A stretch of 5,932 nt of DNA from a virus. Lineage: Duplodnaviria; Heunggongvirae; Uroviricota; Caudoviricetes. This document shows, piece after piece, positions 1,940-5,932 of the stretch. The stretch is from IMG/VR virus record IMGVR_UViG_2563366939_000005, one strand, 5' to 3'. The notes under the pieces are model-generated. The model did not search any database, was not told the DNA's origin, and saw only the letters and a list, made by a program, of their open reading frames with translations. The position numbers were made by a program, and so were the translations under genes. Positions within the stretch are counted from its first letter, which is position 1. Every line of letters starts with the position of its first letter.

Positions 1940-2311
1940 TTAAGCCGCACGGCCATGTCTTGATTTGCTGTAACTAATGCGATTTTTCCAGTCATGCCAC
2001 TCGGTCGGAGCCTCTTCGACTAGTTGTGCCGCATACTTATCCCACTCACGACGATTTACCCATAATTCAGCTTTCCCTCTTGGTTTTAATGGGTCTGTCA
2101 TATAGAAGGCTGGCAGCTTTCCCGCTTTAGCCATTTCAGCCACCGCGCGTGGTGTCTTACCGATGTAAAGAGCAAACCCCTCTTTCGACAGCAAATCTGA
2201 TGGGCGCTCTGAAATCTGAATGCTTTTGCGTTTGGCTTCGTTTTCGAAACTTGCCTCATCGCTAGTTTGACAAGAAATTTCTACATTTGTCGTCACTTTG
2301 CTATCCTCCAT
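1940..2311 (-). CDS. cox: Cox-family excisionase / early-promoter repressor
   Basis: Residues about 40-110 (GFALYIGKTPRAVAEMAKAGKLPAFYMTDPLKPRGKAELWV…WHDW) align with P2 Cox as I recall it (FAKLIGKSTGAVRRMIDKGKLPVIDMTDP…). First gene of the minus-strand operon, divergent from C. Start is uncertain: ATG at 2311, or GTG at 2296 which has a GGAGGA Shine-Dalgarno at ideal 7-nt spacing. Confidence 0.8.
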   Translation of the reverse strand: MEDSKVTTNVEISCQTSDEASFENEAKRKSIQISERPSDLLSKEGFALYIGKTPRAVAEMAKAGKLPAFYMTDPLKPRGKAELWVNRREWDKYAAQLVEEAPTEWHDWKNRISYSKSRHGRAA

Positions 2312-2411
2312 AAGATTTGTAATTCACCAACTGGAGCCATCTAGAGCCTTTTTGAGTGCATCACAAATTGCCAAGTGGCCATATAATTGGAGATTAGCAA
2401 AATTATGTCAA
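2312..2411. promoter_or_regulatory. Divergent lysis-lysogeny switch region between cox and C (candidate promoters and operator repeats)
   Basis: About 93 bp between the divergent cox and C starts. Minus strand has a consensus -35 TTGACA (2411..2406, overlapping the C start codon), a 17-nt spacer and a -10-like AATTAT (2388..2383). A 9-bp direct repeat TNGAGCCNT occurs at 2332..2340 and 2342..2350, one helical turn apart. Plus strand has TATAAT at 2382..2387 without a well-spaced -35. Confidence 0.4.
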
Positions 2412-2704
2412 GTGAACAAAGCGAGAAATTAAAGCTCATCCGTGAATCCGAACGCCTTAAAACTAAGGAACTTGCTGAATTAATTGGAATTAATTACTAC
2501 ACATATCATGGATATGAATCAGGGAAATCAAAAATGCCTATGGAAGCAGGTATGAAGCTGTTTAAGCATCCACGCTTTCGCAAGTATCGTGACTGGTTCA
2601 TGTTTGATGAAATAGATCCCGAAGCTGGACAAATAGCCCCGGCTCTCGCACACATTGGGCAAGACTCAACAACCTTGCACCACTCAGACCAAAAGACTGG
2701 CTGA
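2405..2704 (+). CDS. C: P2 C-type immunity repressor
   Basis: The ORF track entry starts at TTG 2387; the ATG at 2405 gives a 99-aa product, the size of P2 C. The C-terminal third (…DEIDPEAGQIAPALAHIGQDSTTLHHSDQKTG) matches the conserved P2 C region as I recall it. Immediately upstream of int on the same strand, as in P2. Confidence 0.85.
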   Translation: MSSEQSEKLKLIRESERLKTKELAELIGINYYTYHGYESGKSKMPMEAGMKLFKHPRFRKYRDWFMFDEIDPEAGQIAPALAHIGQDSTTLHHSDQKTG

Positions 2705-2797
2705 CGATTTATTCAGCATATGTGTGCAGTAAATGTACGAAAGAAAATTGCATTAATTTTCAAGTAGTAGAAGTAAACAGCGTCATCGGAGGGCTTT

Positions 2798-3793
2798 ATG
2801 TCTATTAAAAAGCTCGATGATGGTCGTTATGAAGTGGACGTCAGACCGCAGGGTACAGATGGAAAACGTATCAGGCGGAAATTTAAAACTAAGGGTGAAG
2901 CTCAAGCATTCGAACGTCATGTACTGGTTAACTACCACAACAAAGAGTGGTTGGAGAAGCCAGCCGACCGCCGAACTCTTACAGAGTTGTTAGGCAGATG
3001 GTGGATATATCACGGAAAATCACATGAGCGTGGAGATATTGAACGGGGGCGTTTGACGACAATAATCGCCAAATTTGCAGAAATGGGAGTATCCAGAGCT
3101 GACCAGCTAACAAAGAAAACGATAACTGATTATCGCGTTGTAATGATGAACGATGGTCTAAAACCAGCCAGCGTAAATCGGCATCTGGCAATAATGAGCG
3201 GGATGTTCACCAAATTAATTGACGCCGGTGAATACCACTCTCACAACCCGTTCCGTGAGGTTAAGCGGTTACGTGAAGCTGTTACGGAAATGGCTTTTTT
3301 GTCCAGTGAAGAGATTACGCGGCTGTTATCCATGCTTGATGGTGATGAATTAAATGCGACTCTGGTCTGCCTTTCTACTGGTGGACGCTGGAGTGAAGTG
3401 TCTAATTTAAAAGCTGAACACATCATTAACCAGATGGTTACGTTTATGAAAACTAAAAACGGAAAGCGCAGGACAATTCCCGTTTCGCCGGACTTGATTA
3501 AACGGATCAAGACCAAAAATTCAGGCAGGCTTTTTAATGCCAGTTACTACAAAGTGCGCAACGCTCTCAGGGAAGTAAAACCCGATTTACCTGACGGACA
3601 GGCAGTGCATGTTTTGAGGCATACATTTGCCACACATTTTATAATGAATGGAGGTAACATAATCACATTGCAGCGCATCCTGGGTCATTCTAACATTCAG
3701 CAAACTATGACCTACGCACACTTTGCACCGGATTTCTTACAAGATGCTGTGACTCTTAACCCGGTGTCAGGAATGTCCATAATGCGTCCATAA
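2798..3793 (+). CDS. int: Tyrosine recombinase, P2-type phage integrase
   Basis: 331 aa with ATG preceded by GGAGGG. Catalytic signature present: box I Arg (LSTGGRWSEV), HxxR (HVLRHTFATHF) and the nucleophile Tyr (LGHSNIQQTMTYAHF). N-terminus MSIKKLDDGRYEVDVRP resembles P2 Int (MAIKKLDDGRYEVDIRP as recalled). Confidence 0.95.
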   Translation: MSIKKLDDGRYEVDVRPQGTDGKRIRRKFKTKGEAQAFERHVLVNYHNKEWLEKPADRRTLTELLGRWWIYHGKSHERGDIERGRLTTIIAKFAEMGVSRADQLTKKTITDYRVVMMNDGLKPASVNRHLAIMSGMFTKLIDAGEYHSHNPFREVKRLREAVTEMAFLSSEEITRLLSMLDGDELNATLVCLSTGGRWSEVSNLKAEHIINQMVTFMKTKNGKRRTIPVSPDLIKRIKTKNSGRLFNASYYKVRNALREVKPDLPDGQAVHVLRHTFATHFIMNGGNIITLQRILGHSNIQQTMTYAHFAPDFLQDAVTLNPVSGMSIMRP

Positions 3794-3824
3794 ACCAGAG
3801 TTAACTAGAGCCAATTGAAGCGAT
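3794..3824. other. Approximate prophage-chromosome junction (att core somewhere between the int stop and the 5' region of pflA)
   Basis: The last phage gene ends at 3793 and the host pflA frame opens at 3825. The core cannot be delimited without the other prophage end. The AT-rich stretch 3825..3860 followed by GC-richer sequence suggests the true junction may lie inside the annotated 5' end of the pflA ORF. Confidence 0.3.
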
Positions 3825-4622
3825 ATGAGTAATTTAACTAATTGTAATACAACAGAAAATACCGCTGCGGCGGGAGCTACCAAGTCAGTTATTGGTCGCA
3901 TTCACTCCTTTGAATCCTGTGGAACCGTAGACGGCCCGGGTATTCGCTTTATCACCTTTTTCCAGGGCTGCCTGATGCGCTGCCTGTATTGTCATAACCG
4001 CGACACCTGGGATACGCATGGCGGTAAAGAAGTTACCGTTGAAGATTTAATGAAGGAAGTGGTGACCTATCGCCACTTTATGAACGCTTCCGGCGGCGGC
4101 GTTACCGCATCCGGCGGTGAAGCAATCCTACAAGCCGAGTTCGTTCGCGACTGGTTCCGCGCCTGCAAAAAAGAAGGCATTCATACCTGTCTGGACACTA
4201 ACGGTTTTGTTCGTCGTTACGATCCAGTAATTGATGAACTTCTGGAAGTGACCGACCTGGTAATGCTCGATCTCAAACAGATGAACGACGAAATCCACCA
4301 GAATCTGGTAGGCGTTTCCAACCATCGTACACTCGAGTTTGCTAAATATCTGGCGAACAAAAATGTGAAAGTCTGGATACGTTATGTCGTAGTACCTGGC
4401 TGGTCTGACGATGACGATTCAGCTCATCGCCTCGGTGAATTTACTCGCGATATGGGTAACGTCGAAAAAATCGAGCTCCTCCCCTACCATGAGTTAGGCA
4501 AACATAAGTGGGTGGCGATGGGCGAAGAGTACAAACTCGACGGTGTGAAACCACCGAAAAAAGAAACCATGGAGCGAGTGAAAGGGATTCTTGAGCAATA
4601 TGGTCATAAAGTGATGTTCTAA
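3825..4622 (+). CDS. pflA: Pyruvate formate-lyase activating enzyme (radical SAM glycyl-radical activase)
   Basis: Radical-SAM CxxxCxxC motif (CLMRCLYC) and a glycine-rich SAM-binding stretch. From codon 21 onward the translation matches E. coli PflA as I recall it ([40 protein letters not shown]… to …[11 protein letters not shown]). The 5' end given is the only in-frame ATG; see the finding on the start codon. Confidence 0.95.
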
Positions 4623-4672
4623 AACATCATGTGCAGGCTGAATTTCGACCTGCCTCCCCTTCCTTTAGTAGT

Positions 4673-4715
4673 AAAAAGTAAATCAGCGTTGAGAACATGC
4701 TCGACGCTGATTTAC
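4673..4715 (-). terminator. Intrinsic terminator in the convergent pflA/OMP intergenic region (mainly serves the minus-strand gene; may also stop pflA)
   Basis: Perfect 11-bp inverted repeat GTAAATCAGCG (4678..4688) with CGCTGATTTAC (4705..4715), extendable to about 16 bp with one G-U pair, loop AACATG. On the minus strand it is followed directly by five T (4677..4673). On the plus strand the T-tract is weaker and displaced. Confidence 0.55.
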
Positions 4716-4756
4716 TGGATATAATTTCCGAGTTTTAACCTTCTGATTCTACCTCG

Positions 4757-5932
4757 TTACCAGTCGGCGTAAGGTATCAGCGGCTGCGGCGGTAAATCCA
4801 TGTCGCCCTGCCATCCGGCGGCGGAATACCGCACGTAGAGCAGGAAATGGCTGGGTGCGTAATCTTTCGCCTGCTGGATATCAATTGCCGTGCCGACAAA
4901 CCAGTTGGACGTGACGCGACGCTCAAGTAACGCCCGCGCCGTGTAGCCAAAGCCCTGACTGCTGCCGCCGGCGTTGGTCTGGCTGGCGGCATCCTCTTTC
5001 CAGTCCGTCGGGATCAGGTTCATCAGCGGATAACGCGGCATGGTTTTGGTGCGTGAATGCGACCACGAGCCAGACGCGCCCAGCTCCCACGACCAGTTTT
5101 CCGTCCGCTCCCGCCACATCACCGGTATGGCAAACGACAGGTATTCCTGCGGGCTGTAGTAACCGCCCTGACCGAGTGAGTAGCCACTCAGGTCTTTGTC
5201 GTAATGCCAGATCATGTTGTTCAGGCCGATTGTGACGCGGCGATTGTTCTGGTTGATGACCTTATAGTAATAGCCCGTCATCCAGCGCACGCGCCAGTTA
5301 TCTTCGACATTTTTACCGGTTAACTGGTCGCCGCTAAGCGATGCCCAGACGCCGTTCGCTTCACCTTTATCGTAGCTCAGACTTAGCCCCACGCCATCGG
5401 CACGCACACCGCCCCATTTTTTCCCGGTATTACCCGGGGAGTCTTTCTGTCCGCCGAAGGCCAGCAAGGAACTGGAGATGGGGCGACGATGGGCGTTAAC
5501 GGTGTAACCAAGCGGCCCGATATCGTCGCTGTAACTGATGCCGCCGACCACATCCACCACGTTGAAGCCCATCGGCGTGGTGCCGATATCCCAGCTCCAG
5601 ACGTCATTTCGCCAGCCGACCGCCACGCTGGCGCCGGAATCTGACTGGCTGCGGTTGCCGCTACAGTCCTGCAACGTACAGGTGCCCCAGTTGTTATCCC
5701 ATTTACCCTCAGCGTCGGCGGAAAAACTGCCGACGTTCATATTGACGAAATCACTGCGAAAGAACATCCGTCCGTCAGAATACGGTGCATCCACCTGCAA
5801 CATGGTGGTGTGCGCTTTCAGGTCGGAGTAACCACCGGTGCCGCTCGAGCCCCAGTAGTCGTGCTCAAGGGTGACGTTAAGATCCTGCTGGCGATAGAGA
5901 TCTGCCGCATCGCTGCGCACGCCGCGCTTCAG
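4757..5932 (-). CDS. Outer-membrane beta-barrel protein, C-terminal portion (resembles the BcsC-type polysaccharide exporter barrel); 5' end beyond window
   Basis: The frame is open from 5932 to the TAA at 4757..4759; the ORF track M at 5920 is a GTG inside a longer frame. Gly/Ser/aromatic-rich, barrel-like sequence ending in an aromatic residue (…PLIPYADW), typical of an OMP beta-signal. GC about 60-65% in the sampled 4757..4816. The BcsC assignment is from memory and tentative. Confidence 0.75.
   Translation of the reverse strand: MKRGVRSDAADLYRQQDLNVTLEHDYWGSSGTGGYSDLKAHTTMLQVDAPYSDGRMFFRSDFVNMNVGSFSADAEGKWDNNWGTCTLQDCSGNRSQSDSGASVAVGWRNDVWSWDIGTTPMGFNVVDVVGGISYSDDIGPLGYTVNAHRRPISSSLLAFGGQKDSPGNTGKKWGGVRADGVGLSLSYDKGEANGVWASLSGDQLTGKNVEDNWRVRWMTGYYYKVINQNNRRVTIGLNNMIWHYDKDLSGYSLGQGGYYSPQEYLSFAIPVMWRERTENWSWELGASGSWSHSRTKTMPRYPLMNLIPTDWKEDAASQTNAGGSSQGFGYTARALLERRVTSNWFVGTAIDIQQAKDYAPSHFLLYVRYSAAGWQGDMDLPPQPLIPYADW

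Follow-up and report, generated by a model that had tools for sequence, protein, structure and literature searches.

Elements that rebuild the end of the gene they disrupt form a known class, and the prophage at pflA described here belongs to it. Both e14 and phage 21 integrate in icd with duplication of its 3' end, the phage carrying a substitute gene end so that the target stays functional. Because these elements replace a 3' end, they need no new start codon or transcription signals, unlike the pflA prophage. In phage lambda, the RNA element sib lies 3' of int, across attP, and is parted from int by integration; the 3' end of the int transcript differs between the free and the integrated phage, and sib is an RNase III site that controls int mRNA decay. 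At pflA, by contrast, the structure across attP is an intrinsic terminator that also serves ogr, and its separation would result in read-through into a host gene.

Islands and prophages with dusA-specific integrases (Farrugia et al. 2015, PMC4482086) resemble the pflA prophage in that they integrate in the 5' end of a coding gene, replace that end with element sequence and keep the reading frame, with putative promoters on the element side. However, the pflA prophage carries a P2-type integrase with Int_N rather than one of the DAI family and targets a different gene, its replacement adds a 19-residue extension instead of mimicking the lost residues, and its lysogenic operon points into the gene, with the terminator split away.

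In its gene order, Cox, facing promoters, C, int, attP and ogr, the element follows phage P2 (Pc-C-int-attP; Bertani's 'split-operon' idea). In P2, Pc and Pe lie face to face, and Pc drives the 'lysogenic operon', in which the repressor C and the integrase are co-expressed (PMC3936717). P2 attachment sites are mostly intergenic (PMC3448106), whereas the core described here is within a coding sequence, and the host gene that follows it runs in the same direction and lacks a promoter. A literature search for a pflA attachment site or for the Salmonella relic described below found no paper. As candidates for an earlier report of the site, we discarded the E. coli HS prophage DuoHS, which is SOS-inducible and has a Tum antirepressor; the HS prophage PhiECO1, which is of the 186 type (CI) in a P2-family survey; and the UTI89 prophage PhiECO5, which is located between serS and dmsA.

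The prophage and its attachment site

We analyzed a window of 5,932 nucleotides, the whole stretch taken from IMG/VR record IMGVR_UViG_2563366939_000005 (Table 1), which contains attR, the junction on the int side of a P2-like prophage that interrupts pflA within its first codons. A P2-like lysogeny module is made up of cox and C, which diverge and have promoter-like sites facing each other, and of a tyrosine integrase gene after them. Cox is annotated likewise in phage D8 and in lysogens. The C gene sits within a listed ORF (2387-2704) and is annotated as 300 nt in related phages; its HTH_19 match is under the Pfam cutoff (24.8 versus 30.2 bits), and it is identified through its counterpart in phage D8, annotated GpC. 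Judging from their motifs, the sites within 2360-2411 would function as Pc and Pe. The int gene has a strong Shine-Dalgarno sequence (-10.0 kcal/mol) and is 98% identical to int of sequenced Peduoviruses.

Table 1. Coordinates of the features at the prophage-pflA junction, numbered from the first letter of the window
Feature	Position	Strand	Basis
cox (P2-type Cox, gene 1 of the lytic early operon)	1940..2311	-	Pfam Phage_Cox, E=5e-30
Candidate Pc promoter before C, ATCACA-16-TATAAT	2360..2387	+	Consensus scan 10/12; PWM 9.3 bits
Pe-like site facing Pc, TTGACA-17-AATTAT	2411-2383	-	Consensus scan 10/12
C, immunity repressor, 99 aa	2405..2704	+	ORF; GpC annotation in phage D8
int, P2-type tyrosine integrase, 331 aa	2798..3793	+	Pfam Int_N and Phage_integrase
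-10-like TAACAT (3655-3660) and overlapping CATAAT (3658-3663), with the equivalent of the Salmonella TSS (3667)	3655..3667	+	
P-arm Int arm-type repeats TGTCCATA (3774-3781) and CGTCCATA (3785-3792)	3774..3792	+	
int-pflA spacer, 31 nt, phage P arm	3794..3824	+	Also in free phages
Phage-supplied ATG and 19 extra codons	3825..3883	+	Identical in attP of free phages D8 and vB_YpM_46
att core / crossover GTCAGTTATTGGT	3884..3896	.	G of the native ATG and pflA codons 2-5
Host-derived rest of pflA (radical-SAM PFL activase)	3897..4622	+	Continues the reading frame opened at phage ATG 3825
Hairpins 3' of pflA (4633-4653 and 4686-4707)	4633..4707	+	Folding (4686-4707); by eye (4633-4653)

Window positions 2300-3896 match 19 phage records with at least 80% coverage and 94-98% identity (among them pro483, D8, 11W, P24E6b and vB_YpM_46), which amounts to near-identity with sequenced virions of Peduovirus, and 20 phage genomes match up to position 3896. 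Since free-phage genomes contain the same stretch, all DNA up to 3883 is phage. In alignments, the 13-bp core is the only sequence common to attL, attR, attP and attB; homology with empty-site genomes starts there, and identity to the 5' DNA of K-12 pflA runs from the core onward. The alignments show that recombination falls within this core, inside the first codons of the target gene as in dusA-type elements. The attP site lies directly 3' of int and, as in P2-like phages, carries two arm-type repeats, 11 bp apart, in each arm. The P-arm repeats, which overlap the final int codons and the stop codon, fit the P2 arm consensus tgTGGaCa (PMC3448106) in reverse complement, and the D8 P' arm contains a matching pair. 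The DNA that separates the core from the Int arm repeats is probably an IHF bend.

Displacement and replacement of the pflA 5' end

Comparison of the empty site with the lysogen showed that the native pflA promoter, which maps to the pflB-pflA intergenic region (PMC5371410), is displaced by ~33 kb to the pflB-side junction, together with the 5' UTR, the Shine-Dalgarno sequence and the ATG. The displaced native start is left with a stub of 8 codons (MSVIGDIF), which leads into a strong, bidirectional hairpin. With the native promoter and start codon cut off, pflA would have to be expressed from phage DNA. The earlier note had allowed for a native pflA promoter at positions 3794-3881 and had proposed an FNR/ArcA-regulated start there as the observation that would overturn read-through; this stretch is phage attP arm, so the native promoter does not lie in it and the proposed criterion was mis-specified. 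The suggested promoter in the AT-rich positions 3825-3860, also attP arm, would start transcription 3' of the only usable ATG.

The empty site lacks the ATG at 3825 and the 19 codons after it, which belong to attP of free virions and join pflA codon 2 in frame. The native ATG position is occupied by AAG (3882-3884), the final G of which is the first core base. The resulting frame (3825-4622, 265 aa) contains Pfam Radical_SAM and Fer4_12 domains and the radical-SAM CX3CX2C motif (CLMRCLYC in the translation), has a PflA-length domain, aligns collinearly with PflA of E. coli from residue 2 on and is labeled pflA by PGAP as a 798-nt gene. No alternative in-frame ATG, GTG or TTG was found from 3828 to the radical-SAM cysteines, and we infer that functional PflA is translated from ATG 3825. 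This ATG has almost no Shine-Dalgarno sequence (-2.1 kcal/mol, versus -6.4 for native pflA), and the 31-nt spacer before it includes an in-frame stop codon (TGA, 3816-3818). We rejected GGGAG (3872-3876) as a ribosome-binding site; it is 5 nt ahead of the AAG, which is not a start codon, and free phages have GGGGG. We likewise dismissed an origin of the arm in Providencia, a host whose PflA is naturally extended, because the DNA is dissimilar and an internal native ATG is present.

Prevalence and conservation of the junction

The junction was found in 405 of 5426 complete E. coli genomes (7.5%, ~1/13) from many hosts, including ETEC E24377A, APEC O78 and strains of ST131 and O157, at one copy per genome and in every case fused to a pflA annotated as intact. 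Nearly all of them (393/405) retain C and int upstream. The E. albertii type strain has the same junction; four other matches of the cross-species pattern scan were set aside as chance, one after direct reading and the rest judging from the organism. A scan of IMG/VR with Int matched only 99%-identical prophage calls trimmed at int.

The 20-codon extension, with its ATG position unchanged, recurs in E. coli (two variants, ~88% identical), Citrobacter, Salmonella, Klebsiella and other genera. Among five diverged DNA variants, which share ancestry and hence are not independent trials, frame 0 contains no stop codons, whereas each other forward frame contains two to four, and the frame and ATG persist at 30-40% nucleotide divergence. 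Thus, as with dusA-type elements, the element-borne in-frame start codon is kept in diverged relatives. Conservation around the ATG could stem in part from the attP function (IHF/Int binding) rather than from translation. The feature beyond chance is the recurrent pflA-fused junction; the lack of a terminator over 31 nt is not improbable by itself.

These data bear on the possibility that integration inactivates pflA, the in-frame ATG being fortuitous and lysogens tolerating the lost PFL activation. The very weak ribosome-binding site at 3825 would fit such a scenario, and in any one sequence, chance could produce 60 nt of open frame with an ATG without this being extremely improbable. Nevertheless, we consider inactivation highly improbable, given the frequency of the junction with intact pflA, the persistence of frame and ATG while other frames fill with stops, and the occurrence in Salmonella enterica of just this pflA form, with mapped transcription start sites (TSSs).

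Terminators and the C-int transcript

That C, int and pflA share a strand, with a 31-nt gap before pflA and no credible terminator, had been pointed out from the sequence and is borne out by the ORF listing, Pfam and the terminator and hairpin scans. A consensus scan detected no + strand terminator between 2235 and 4800. A scan for hairpins with U-tracts (2690-4720) returned weak bulged structures within the translated int, the best (-9.2 kcal/mol) at 3263-3296, or 3263-3304 with its U-run, and no structures from 3527 to 3900. A clean GC hairpin first occurs 3' of pflA, at 4686-4707 (-11.1 kcal/mol), and the hairpins at 4633-4707 are the first candidate transcript end past Pc. The phage's own C-int terminator sits across attP, in the P' arm (hairpin of -17.8/-19.6 kcal/mol), and is split off upon integration, so that read-through from C-int into pflA is structurally expected. 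Rho-dependent termination or decay in the 1-kb int may limit it.

A Salmonella relic and promoter candidates inside int

In Salmonella, the junction survives as a relic that lacks both C and Pc. A tblastn search with Int against this locus gave nothing significant, but blastn and local protein alignment did detect the int remnant. As the relic is the only form of pflA in Salmonella enterica, the phage-derived start must work there. In two Salmonella dRNA-seq studies, a primary pflA TSS lies inside the int remnant (PMC3293720 and PMC3963941, supplements); in total, two pflA TSSs map to the remnant, indicating that int 3' DNA can carry promoter activity. Via an ungapped alignment block, the SL1344 TSS 1010207 and its promoter string were carried to window coordinates, the TSS falling at 3667; the second Salmonella site lies ~115 nt farther upstream. 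The -10 element reads TAACAT in the intact phage and a better TAAAAT in Salmonella, where the promoter may have improved after the loss of C and Pc. By this correspondence, the region around 3655-3667 would have promoter activity in the intact phage as well. A second relic, in another genus, keeps just the last ~220 nt of int, the arm and the ATG.

An int-internal promoter is, in view of the Salmonella TSS, an equally serious source of pflA mRNA. The earlier proposal that pflA continues the C-int transcript therefore holds in its structural prerequisites, the native promoter being lost and the terminator split off, but not in its dismissal of promoters inside int, as the Salmonella TSS corresponds to 3667. 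Within the intact int 3' end itself, the best promoter-like score is reached by 30% of shuffled sequences. The candidate TTAACC-16-CATAAT (3756-3783) was rejected as a dedicated promoter, its -35 being lost in the 88% variant; conservation of its -10 follows from its place inside an Int arm-type repeat.

Likely sources of pflA mRNA

The explanation that we favor, with a probability of about 0.75, is that attR lies in pflA, the native 5' end is displaced, the phage ATG is used and the mRNA comes from the prophage, starting at Pc, inside int, or both. The two likely sources are not mutually exclusive. Transcripts begun at Pc, having lost the C-int terminator, would cross the 31-nt spacer and end at the terminator of pflA itself, and a sigma-70 promoter in the int 3' end (-10 at ~3655-3663, start at ~3667) could act as in the Salmonella relic. 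Native pflA is reportedly constitutive and not FNR-controlled; a substitute in the form of either a lysogenic transcript, itself constitutive, or a housekeeping promoter of low strength would therefore keep fermentation going while the phage occupies the site.

Each source could also act alone. If pflA were solely the distal part of the Pc-C-int transcript, it would be fully under the lysogenic switch and be lost when Cox shuts Pc. The arrangement of the genes, the separated terminator and the retention of C and int in junction genomes of E. coli all agree with this; moreover, promoter-like sites upstream of 3825 never beat shuffled sequence, and both scanned candidates within int decay in the 88% variant (TTAACC to TAAATC; TAACAT at 3691-3696 to AAACAT). 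We nonetheless regard exclusive dependence on Pc as unlikely, because the Salmonella and second-genus relics express or retain pflA without C or Pc. Conversely, a promoter in the int 3' end (~3620-3667) might be the sole origin of pflA transcripts, with too few C-int transcripts escaping Rho and decay within int to matter. The match of the Salmonella TSS to 3667, with TAAAAT there against TAACAT/CATAAT here, points in this direction, as does the retention of just that part of int in both relics; the segment is also identical in the 88% E. coli variant and Citrobacter. This identity is, however, explained by the conserved Int catalytic region NGGNIITLQRILGH, the site has neither a -35 nor an extended -10 and does not score above shuffles, and with no terminator or long untranslated stretch there is nothing to halt Pc transcripts, which leaves sole use of the int promoter doubtful too.

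Possible domestication and implications

Beyond the single lysogen, we lean slightly towards the view that this P2-like lineage carries a portable pflA 5' end in attP (start, 20 codons and transcription signals) that makes occupancy cost-free and has been repeatedly domesticated. Under this scenario, pflA would be phage-started throughout Salmonella enterica and transcribed from integrase-pseudogene promoters, with the sopD2 effector islet at the former place of the prophage, while pflA of lysogens would also be tied to the lysogenic promoter. The junction could thus fossilize, the pflA promoter and N-terminus of Salmonella appearing to be phage relics beside sopD2.

In about one in 13 complete E. 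coli genomes, as well as in Klebsiella and Citrobacter, a core anaerobic gene would depend on phage DNA for its expression, and its product would be a phage-host fusion that annotation pipelines silently record as a 265-aa PflA. The locus is a clean example, open to testing, of a core gene at which a prophage rewires the initiation of transcription as well as of translation. It also offers a natural setting in which to learn if lysogenic transcripts of P2-type phages enter host genes. For strain engineers and for comparisons of regulation, it matters that the pflA upstream region of K-12 is not homologous to those of wild strains or Salmonella.

Integration site and gene layout

The int–pflA junction is present in 405 of 5426 complete E. 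coli genomes; in the remaining ones, homology to the window begins only near 3881. The phage is an ordinary P2-like Peduovirus, represented in strain 18044 by a 33.5-kb prophage between pflB and pflA. We mapped the att core by aligning the K-12 empty site, both prophage ends of strain 18044, and attP of the free phages D8 and vB_YpM_46. The core, GTCAGTTATTGGT, consists of the G of the native ATG and pflA codons 2–5 (see table). The window contains the int-side junction, where AAG stands in place of the native ATG. Up to 3883 the window is phage DNA throughout, and this DNA includes an ATG (3825) followed by 19 more codons. Matches to the window in 20 sequenced Peduovirus genomes reach as far as 3896, the final core base, and in the free phages a 27-codon mini-ORF spans attP.

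At the pflB-side junction (strain 18044 locus, L003 10800-10950), the native pflA promoter region, Shine-Dalgarno sequence and ATG were left joined to phage DNA. This ATG now heads an 8-codon stub, MSVIGDIF, with a GC hairpin (GCCCCTCGACTGAGGGGC) about 80 nt past it, and the orphaned promoter is directed into the prophage, antisense to ogr. According to a passage of PMC5371410 that cites Sauter & Sawers 1990, the promoter and 5′ end mapped for pflA lie in the pflB–pflA intergenic region. Thus, pflA in the window is severed from the native signals that start its transcription and translation, so any expression of it must come from phage DNA.

Features of the integrated phage end, pflA and the Salmonella relic
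Feature	Position	Strand	Basis
C repressor, P2-type, 99 aa	2405-2704	+	ORF list
int, tyrosine integrase, 331 aa	2798-3793	+	ORF list; Pfam Int_N + Phage_integrase
P-arm arm-type repeat TGTCCATA	3774-3781		fits P2 consensus tgTGGaCa
P-arm arm-type repeat CGTCCATA	3785-3792		fits P2 consensus tgTGGaCa
pflA frame, radical-SAM protein PflA, 265 aa	3825-4622	+	ORF list; Pfam
att core, 13 bp, GTCAGTTATTGGT	3884-3896		empty-site, prophage-end and attP alignments
Hairpin 3′ of pflA, first credible + strand terminator	4686-4707	+	hairpin-plus-U-tract scan
Salmonella relic of the attR junction	L093 2456-4060 (LR134190.1); SL1344 1009255-1011587

The earlier note correctly described C, int and pflA as co-directional, with a 31-nt int–pflA gap and no intervening terminator (ORF list, Pfam and two terminator scans). 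A consensus scan and a hairpin-plus-U-tract scan (2690-4720) found the + strand free of credible intrinsic terminators upstream of 4686-4707, and the candidates before 4686 are weak, bulged and within translated int, the best being at 3263-3296 (−9.2 kcal/mol). This last hairpin is followed by TTTTTTG (3263-3304, + strand); termination there is unlikely during translation, and it could attenuate read-through where int translation is poor. The gene 3′ of pflA (4757-5920, minus strand) encodes a BcsC C-terminal domain (Pfam, E = 2e-120), and its place is taken by ycaK in K-12 and E24377A and by ycaD in the ST131 strain 18044, so the region 3′ of pflA is strain-variable.

The strain 18044 prophage carries an IS21-family ISEc12 between its terminase and portal genes (L003 31999-34301) and is probably defective, though the junction is kept. 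Three of the 405 junction copies lie, with chromosomal pflA, on plasmid-labelled records (e.g. NZ_CP134387.1, 88,440 bp), probably chromosomal contigs that were mis-assigned or left unplaced.

Organization of attP

The two P-arm repeats, which fit the P2 arm-type consensus (PMC3448106), lie 11 bp apart, and a matching pair is present in the P′ arm. The AT-rich stretch flagged in the earlier note separates the arm repeats from the core; IHF binds at this place in P2-type sites, and here matches to the IHF consensus are only weak. The P′ arm contains a hairpin that folds at −17.8 kcal/mol on the + strand, followed by a T-rich tail, and at −19.6 kcal/mol on the minus strand, where it has a T6 run and ends ogr; having tails on both strands, it is taken to be a bidirectional terminator. 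In the circular phage, this terminator would end the C-int transcript. Integration shifts it to the other junction, where it would keep transcripts from the orphaned native pflA promoter out of the prophage.

Source of pflA transcription

Pc drives the lysogenic operon of repressor and integrase (PMC3936717), and the resulting C-int transcript would read through into pflA. In support of this route, no terminator lies ahead of pflA, the natural one is split away, only 31 nt between int and pflA are untranslated, and C and int are kept in all E. coli junction genomes (393 at at least 80% coverage of C, int and junction; the others differ in the immunity region). A second possible source is a promoter within the int 3′ end. 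Differential RNA-seq of S. Typhimurium SL1344 identified two pflA start sites, 1010207 (primary) and 1010322 (PMC3293720 supplementary file 2), both also found in a second, independent data set (PMC3963941 supplementary file 7). The 51-nt promoter string of 1010207 falls in the Salmonella int remnant (L093 3796-3846) and, through an ungapped alignment block, corresponds to window 3617-3667, the equivalent start being 3667, 158 nt 5′ of ATG 3825. However, the Salmonella −10, TAAAAT, is TAACAT (3655-3660) in the intact phage, overlapping CATAAT (3658-3663), and may have become stronger following the loss of Pc; the candidate has no −35; and sigma-70 scoring upstream of 3825 found nothing above shuffled sequence (best 8.5 bits, equalled by 30% of shuffles). 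Because this segment codes for the conserved Int stretch NGGNIITLQRILGH, its conservation is uninformative as to a promoter.

Both sources are compatible with the data. Read-through from C-int, which the earlier note had put forward as a possibility, is structurally expected and more compelling than was argued there, since pflA has been left promoterless, a loss that the note missed; the Salmonella start sites lend indirect experimental support to an int-internal promoter. The note's interpretation is partly supported. The remaining promoter candidates from the scan were rejected, among them TTAACC-16-CATAAT (3756-3783): its −35 is gone in an 88%-identity variant and its −10 lies within an arm repeat.

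Conservation of the phage-supplied start

Sequence comparison indicates that phages of this lineage rebuild the 5′ end of their disrupted target gene, and this rebuilt end, together with its relics, is a more substantial result than the read-through question. In 405 of 405 genomes, the junction is single-copy and beside an intact annotated pflA. These genomes come from humans, livestock, birds and water and include ETEC E24377A, APEC O78, and ST131 and O157 strains; the E. albertii type strain also has the junction. The 88%-identity variant (11 genomes) has four amino-acid changes and keeps the ATG, the frame and the upstream in-frame stop.

A protein search collected related 20-residue PflA extensions from Klebsiella pneumoniae (the same as that of phage D8, 336 contigs), Citrobacter portucalensis (MSNLTHCKDKENTAITAPVK), Salmonella enterica (MSNLTNCITNESVAVTADKK and MSNLNDCIKKENTAAAAEKK), an Atlantibacter-type source (MSNLMQNIETESPVVADANK) and further genera (MTNLTNC..., MGNLIGC..., MSNTNDC...). 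Across five DNA variants differing at 13–40% of positions, the pflA frame has no stops vs 2–4 in each of the other two forward frames, and the Citrobacter locus has the identical Cox-C-Int-31 bp-pflA order. Counting against a functional start, the Shine-Dalgarno of ATG 3825 is very weak (−2.1 vs −6.4 kcal/mol for native pflA), and conservation around this ATG may be partly due to attP function.

Relics without a prophage

The rebuilt pflA end appears, from its sequence, to be fixed as a relic in other genera. The Salmonella pflB–pflA interval contains no prophage; its order is pflB, a sopD-family gene (sopD2 in SL1344), a decayed int 3′ fragment, the int stop region, GAAGCGAT, and ATG AGT AAC TTA ACC AAT TGT... 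fused to pflA. Window 3601-3858 and this locus share 71% identity over 260 nt (E = 4e-27), and Int residues about 196–300 align with a broken ORF. The extension is consistently present in Salmonella PflA entries. This fossil junction, with sopD2 between pflB and the relic, suggests that the Salmonella PflA N-terminus is phage-derived and that sopD2 occupies a former P2-like prophage site. The Salmonella PflA start is annotated in three ways (258, 265 and 274 aa).

A second relic, in Logan assemblies SRR23300977 (L097 3569-4060) and SRR23300980 (L098) from another Enterobacterales genus, has focA-pflB, a 431-bp gap and a 265-aa pflA, with no prophage; this PflA groups with proteins of Rouxiella, Ewingella and Providencia. 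What survives of the junction is the final 220 nt or so of int, with the arm repeats and the ATG extension (68% identity, E = 3e-21), and the ~130 nt upstream of the int remnant in L097 may still hold the host's native pflA promoter. Together, the relics indicate that the phage-derived start can support a working gene without C, Pc or intact int.

Related elements

Related concepts include icd, the 3′ end of which is replaced by e14 or phage 21, lambda sib, an RNA element 3′ of int that is separated by integration, and the split-operon idea for P2, reportedly from Bertani. We rate the pflA phage as joining an already known class of gene-end-rebuilding elements. Its closest functional analogue is the dusA-specific integrase family, whose islands and prophages integrate in the dusA 5′ end, put element sequence there and show putative promoters (PMC4482086). 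The literature searched, a collection with few subscription-journal papers, yielded no account of the pflA att site or the Salmonella relic, so an earlier description is possible.

The P2-type prophage PhiECO5 of UTI89 (L099 38986-40689; NC_007946.1 946985-948688) sits between serS and dmsA, not at pflA, with C and int directed into the co-directional host gene dmsA. A 300-bp gap precedes dmsA, which therefore probably keeps its own promoter, and the locus would be a useful control for C-int read-through. In strain TUM11352 (NZ_CP134384.1 3076134-3077212), a prophage adjoining hcr has the same C and first two-thirds of int (92% identity) and a different int 3′ end, as though integrase specificity and att site had been exchanged as a module. 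In C. portucalensis (L094 1-3969), the Cox-C-Int-attP module and pflA junction accompany other replication genes (an 887-aa Toprim primase, ParE-like and Rv2179c-like) in place of the P2 A/B-type genes; thus, the pflA-targeting module moves between element backbones.
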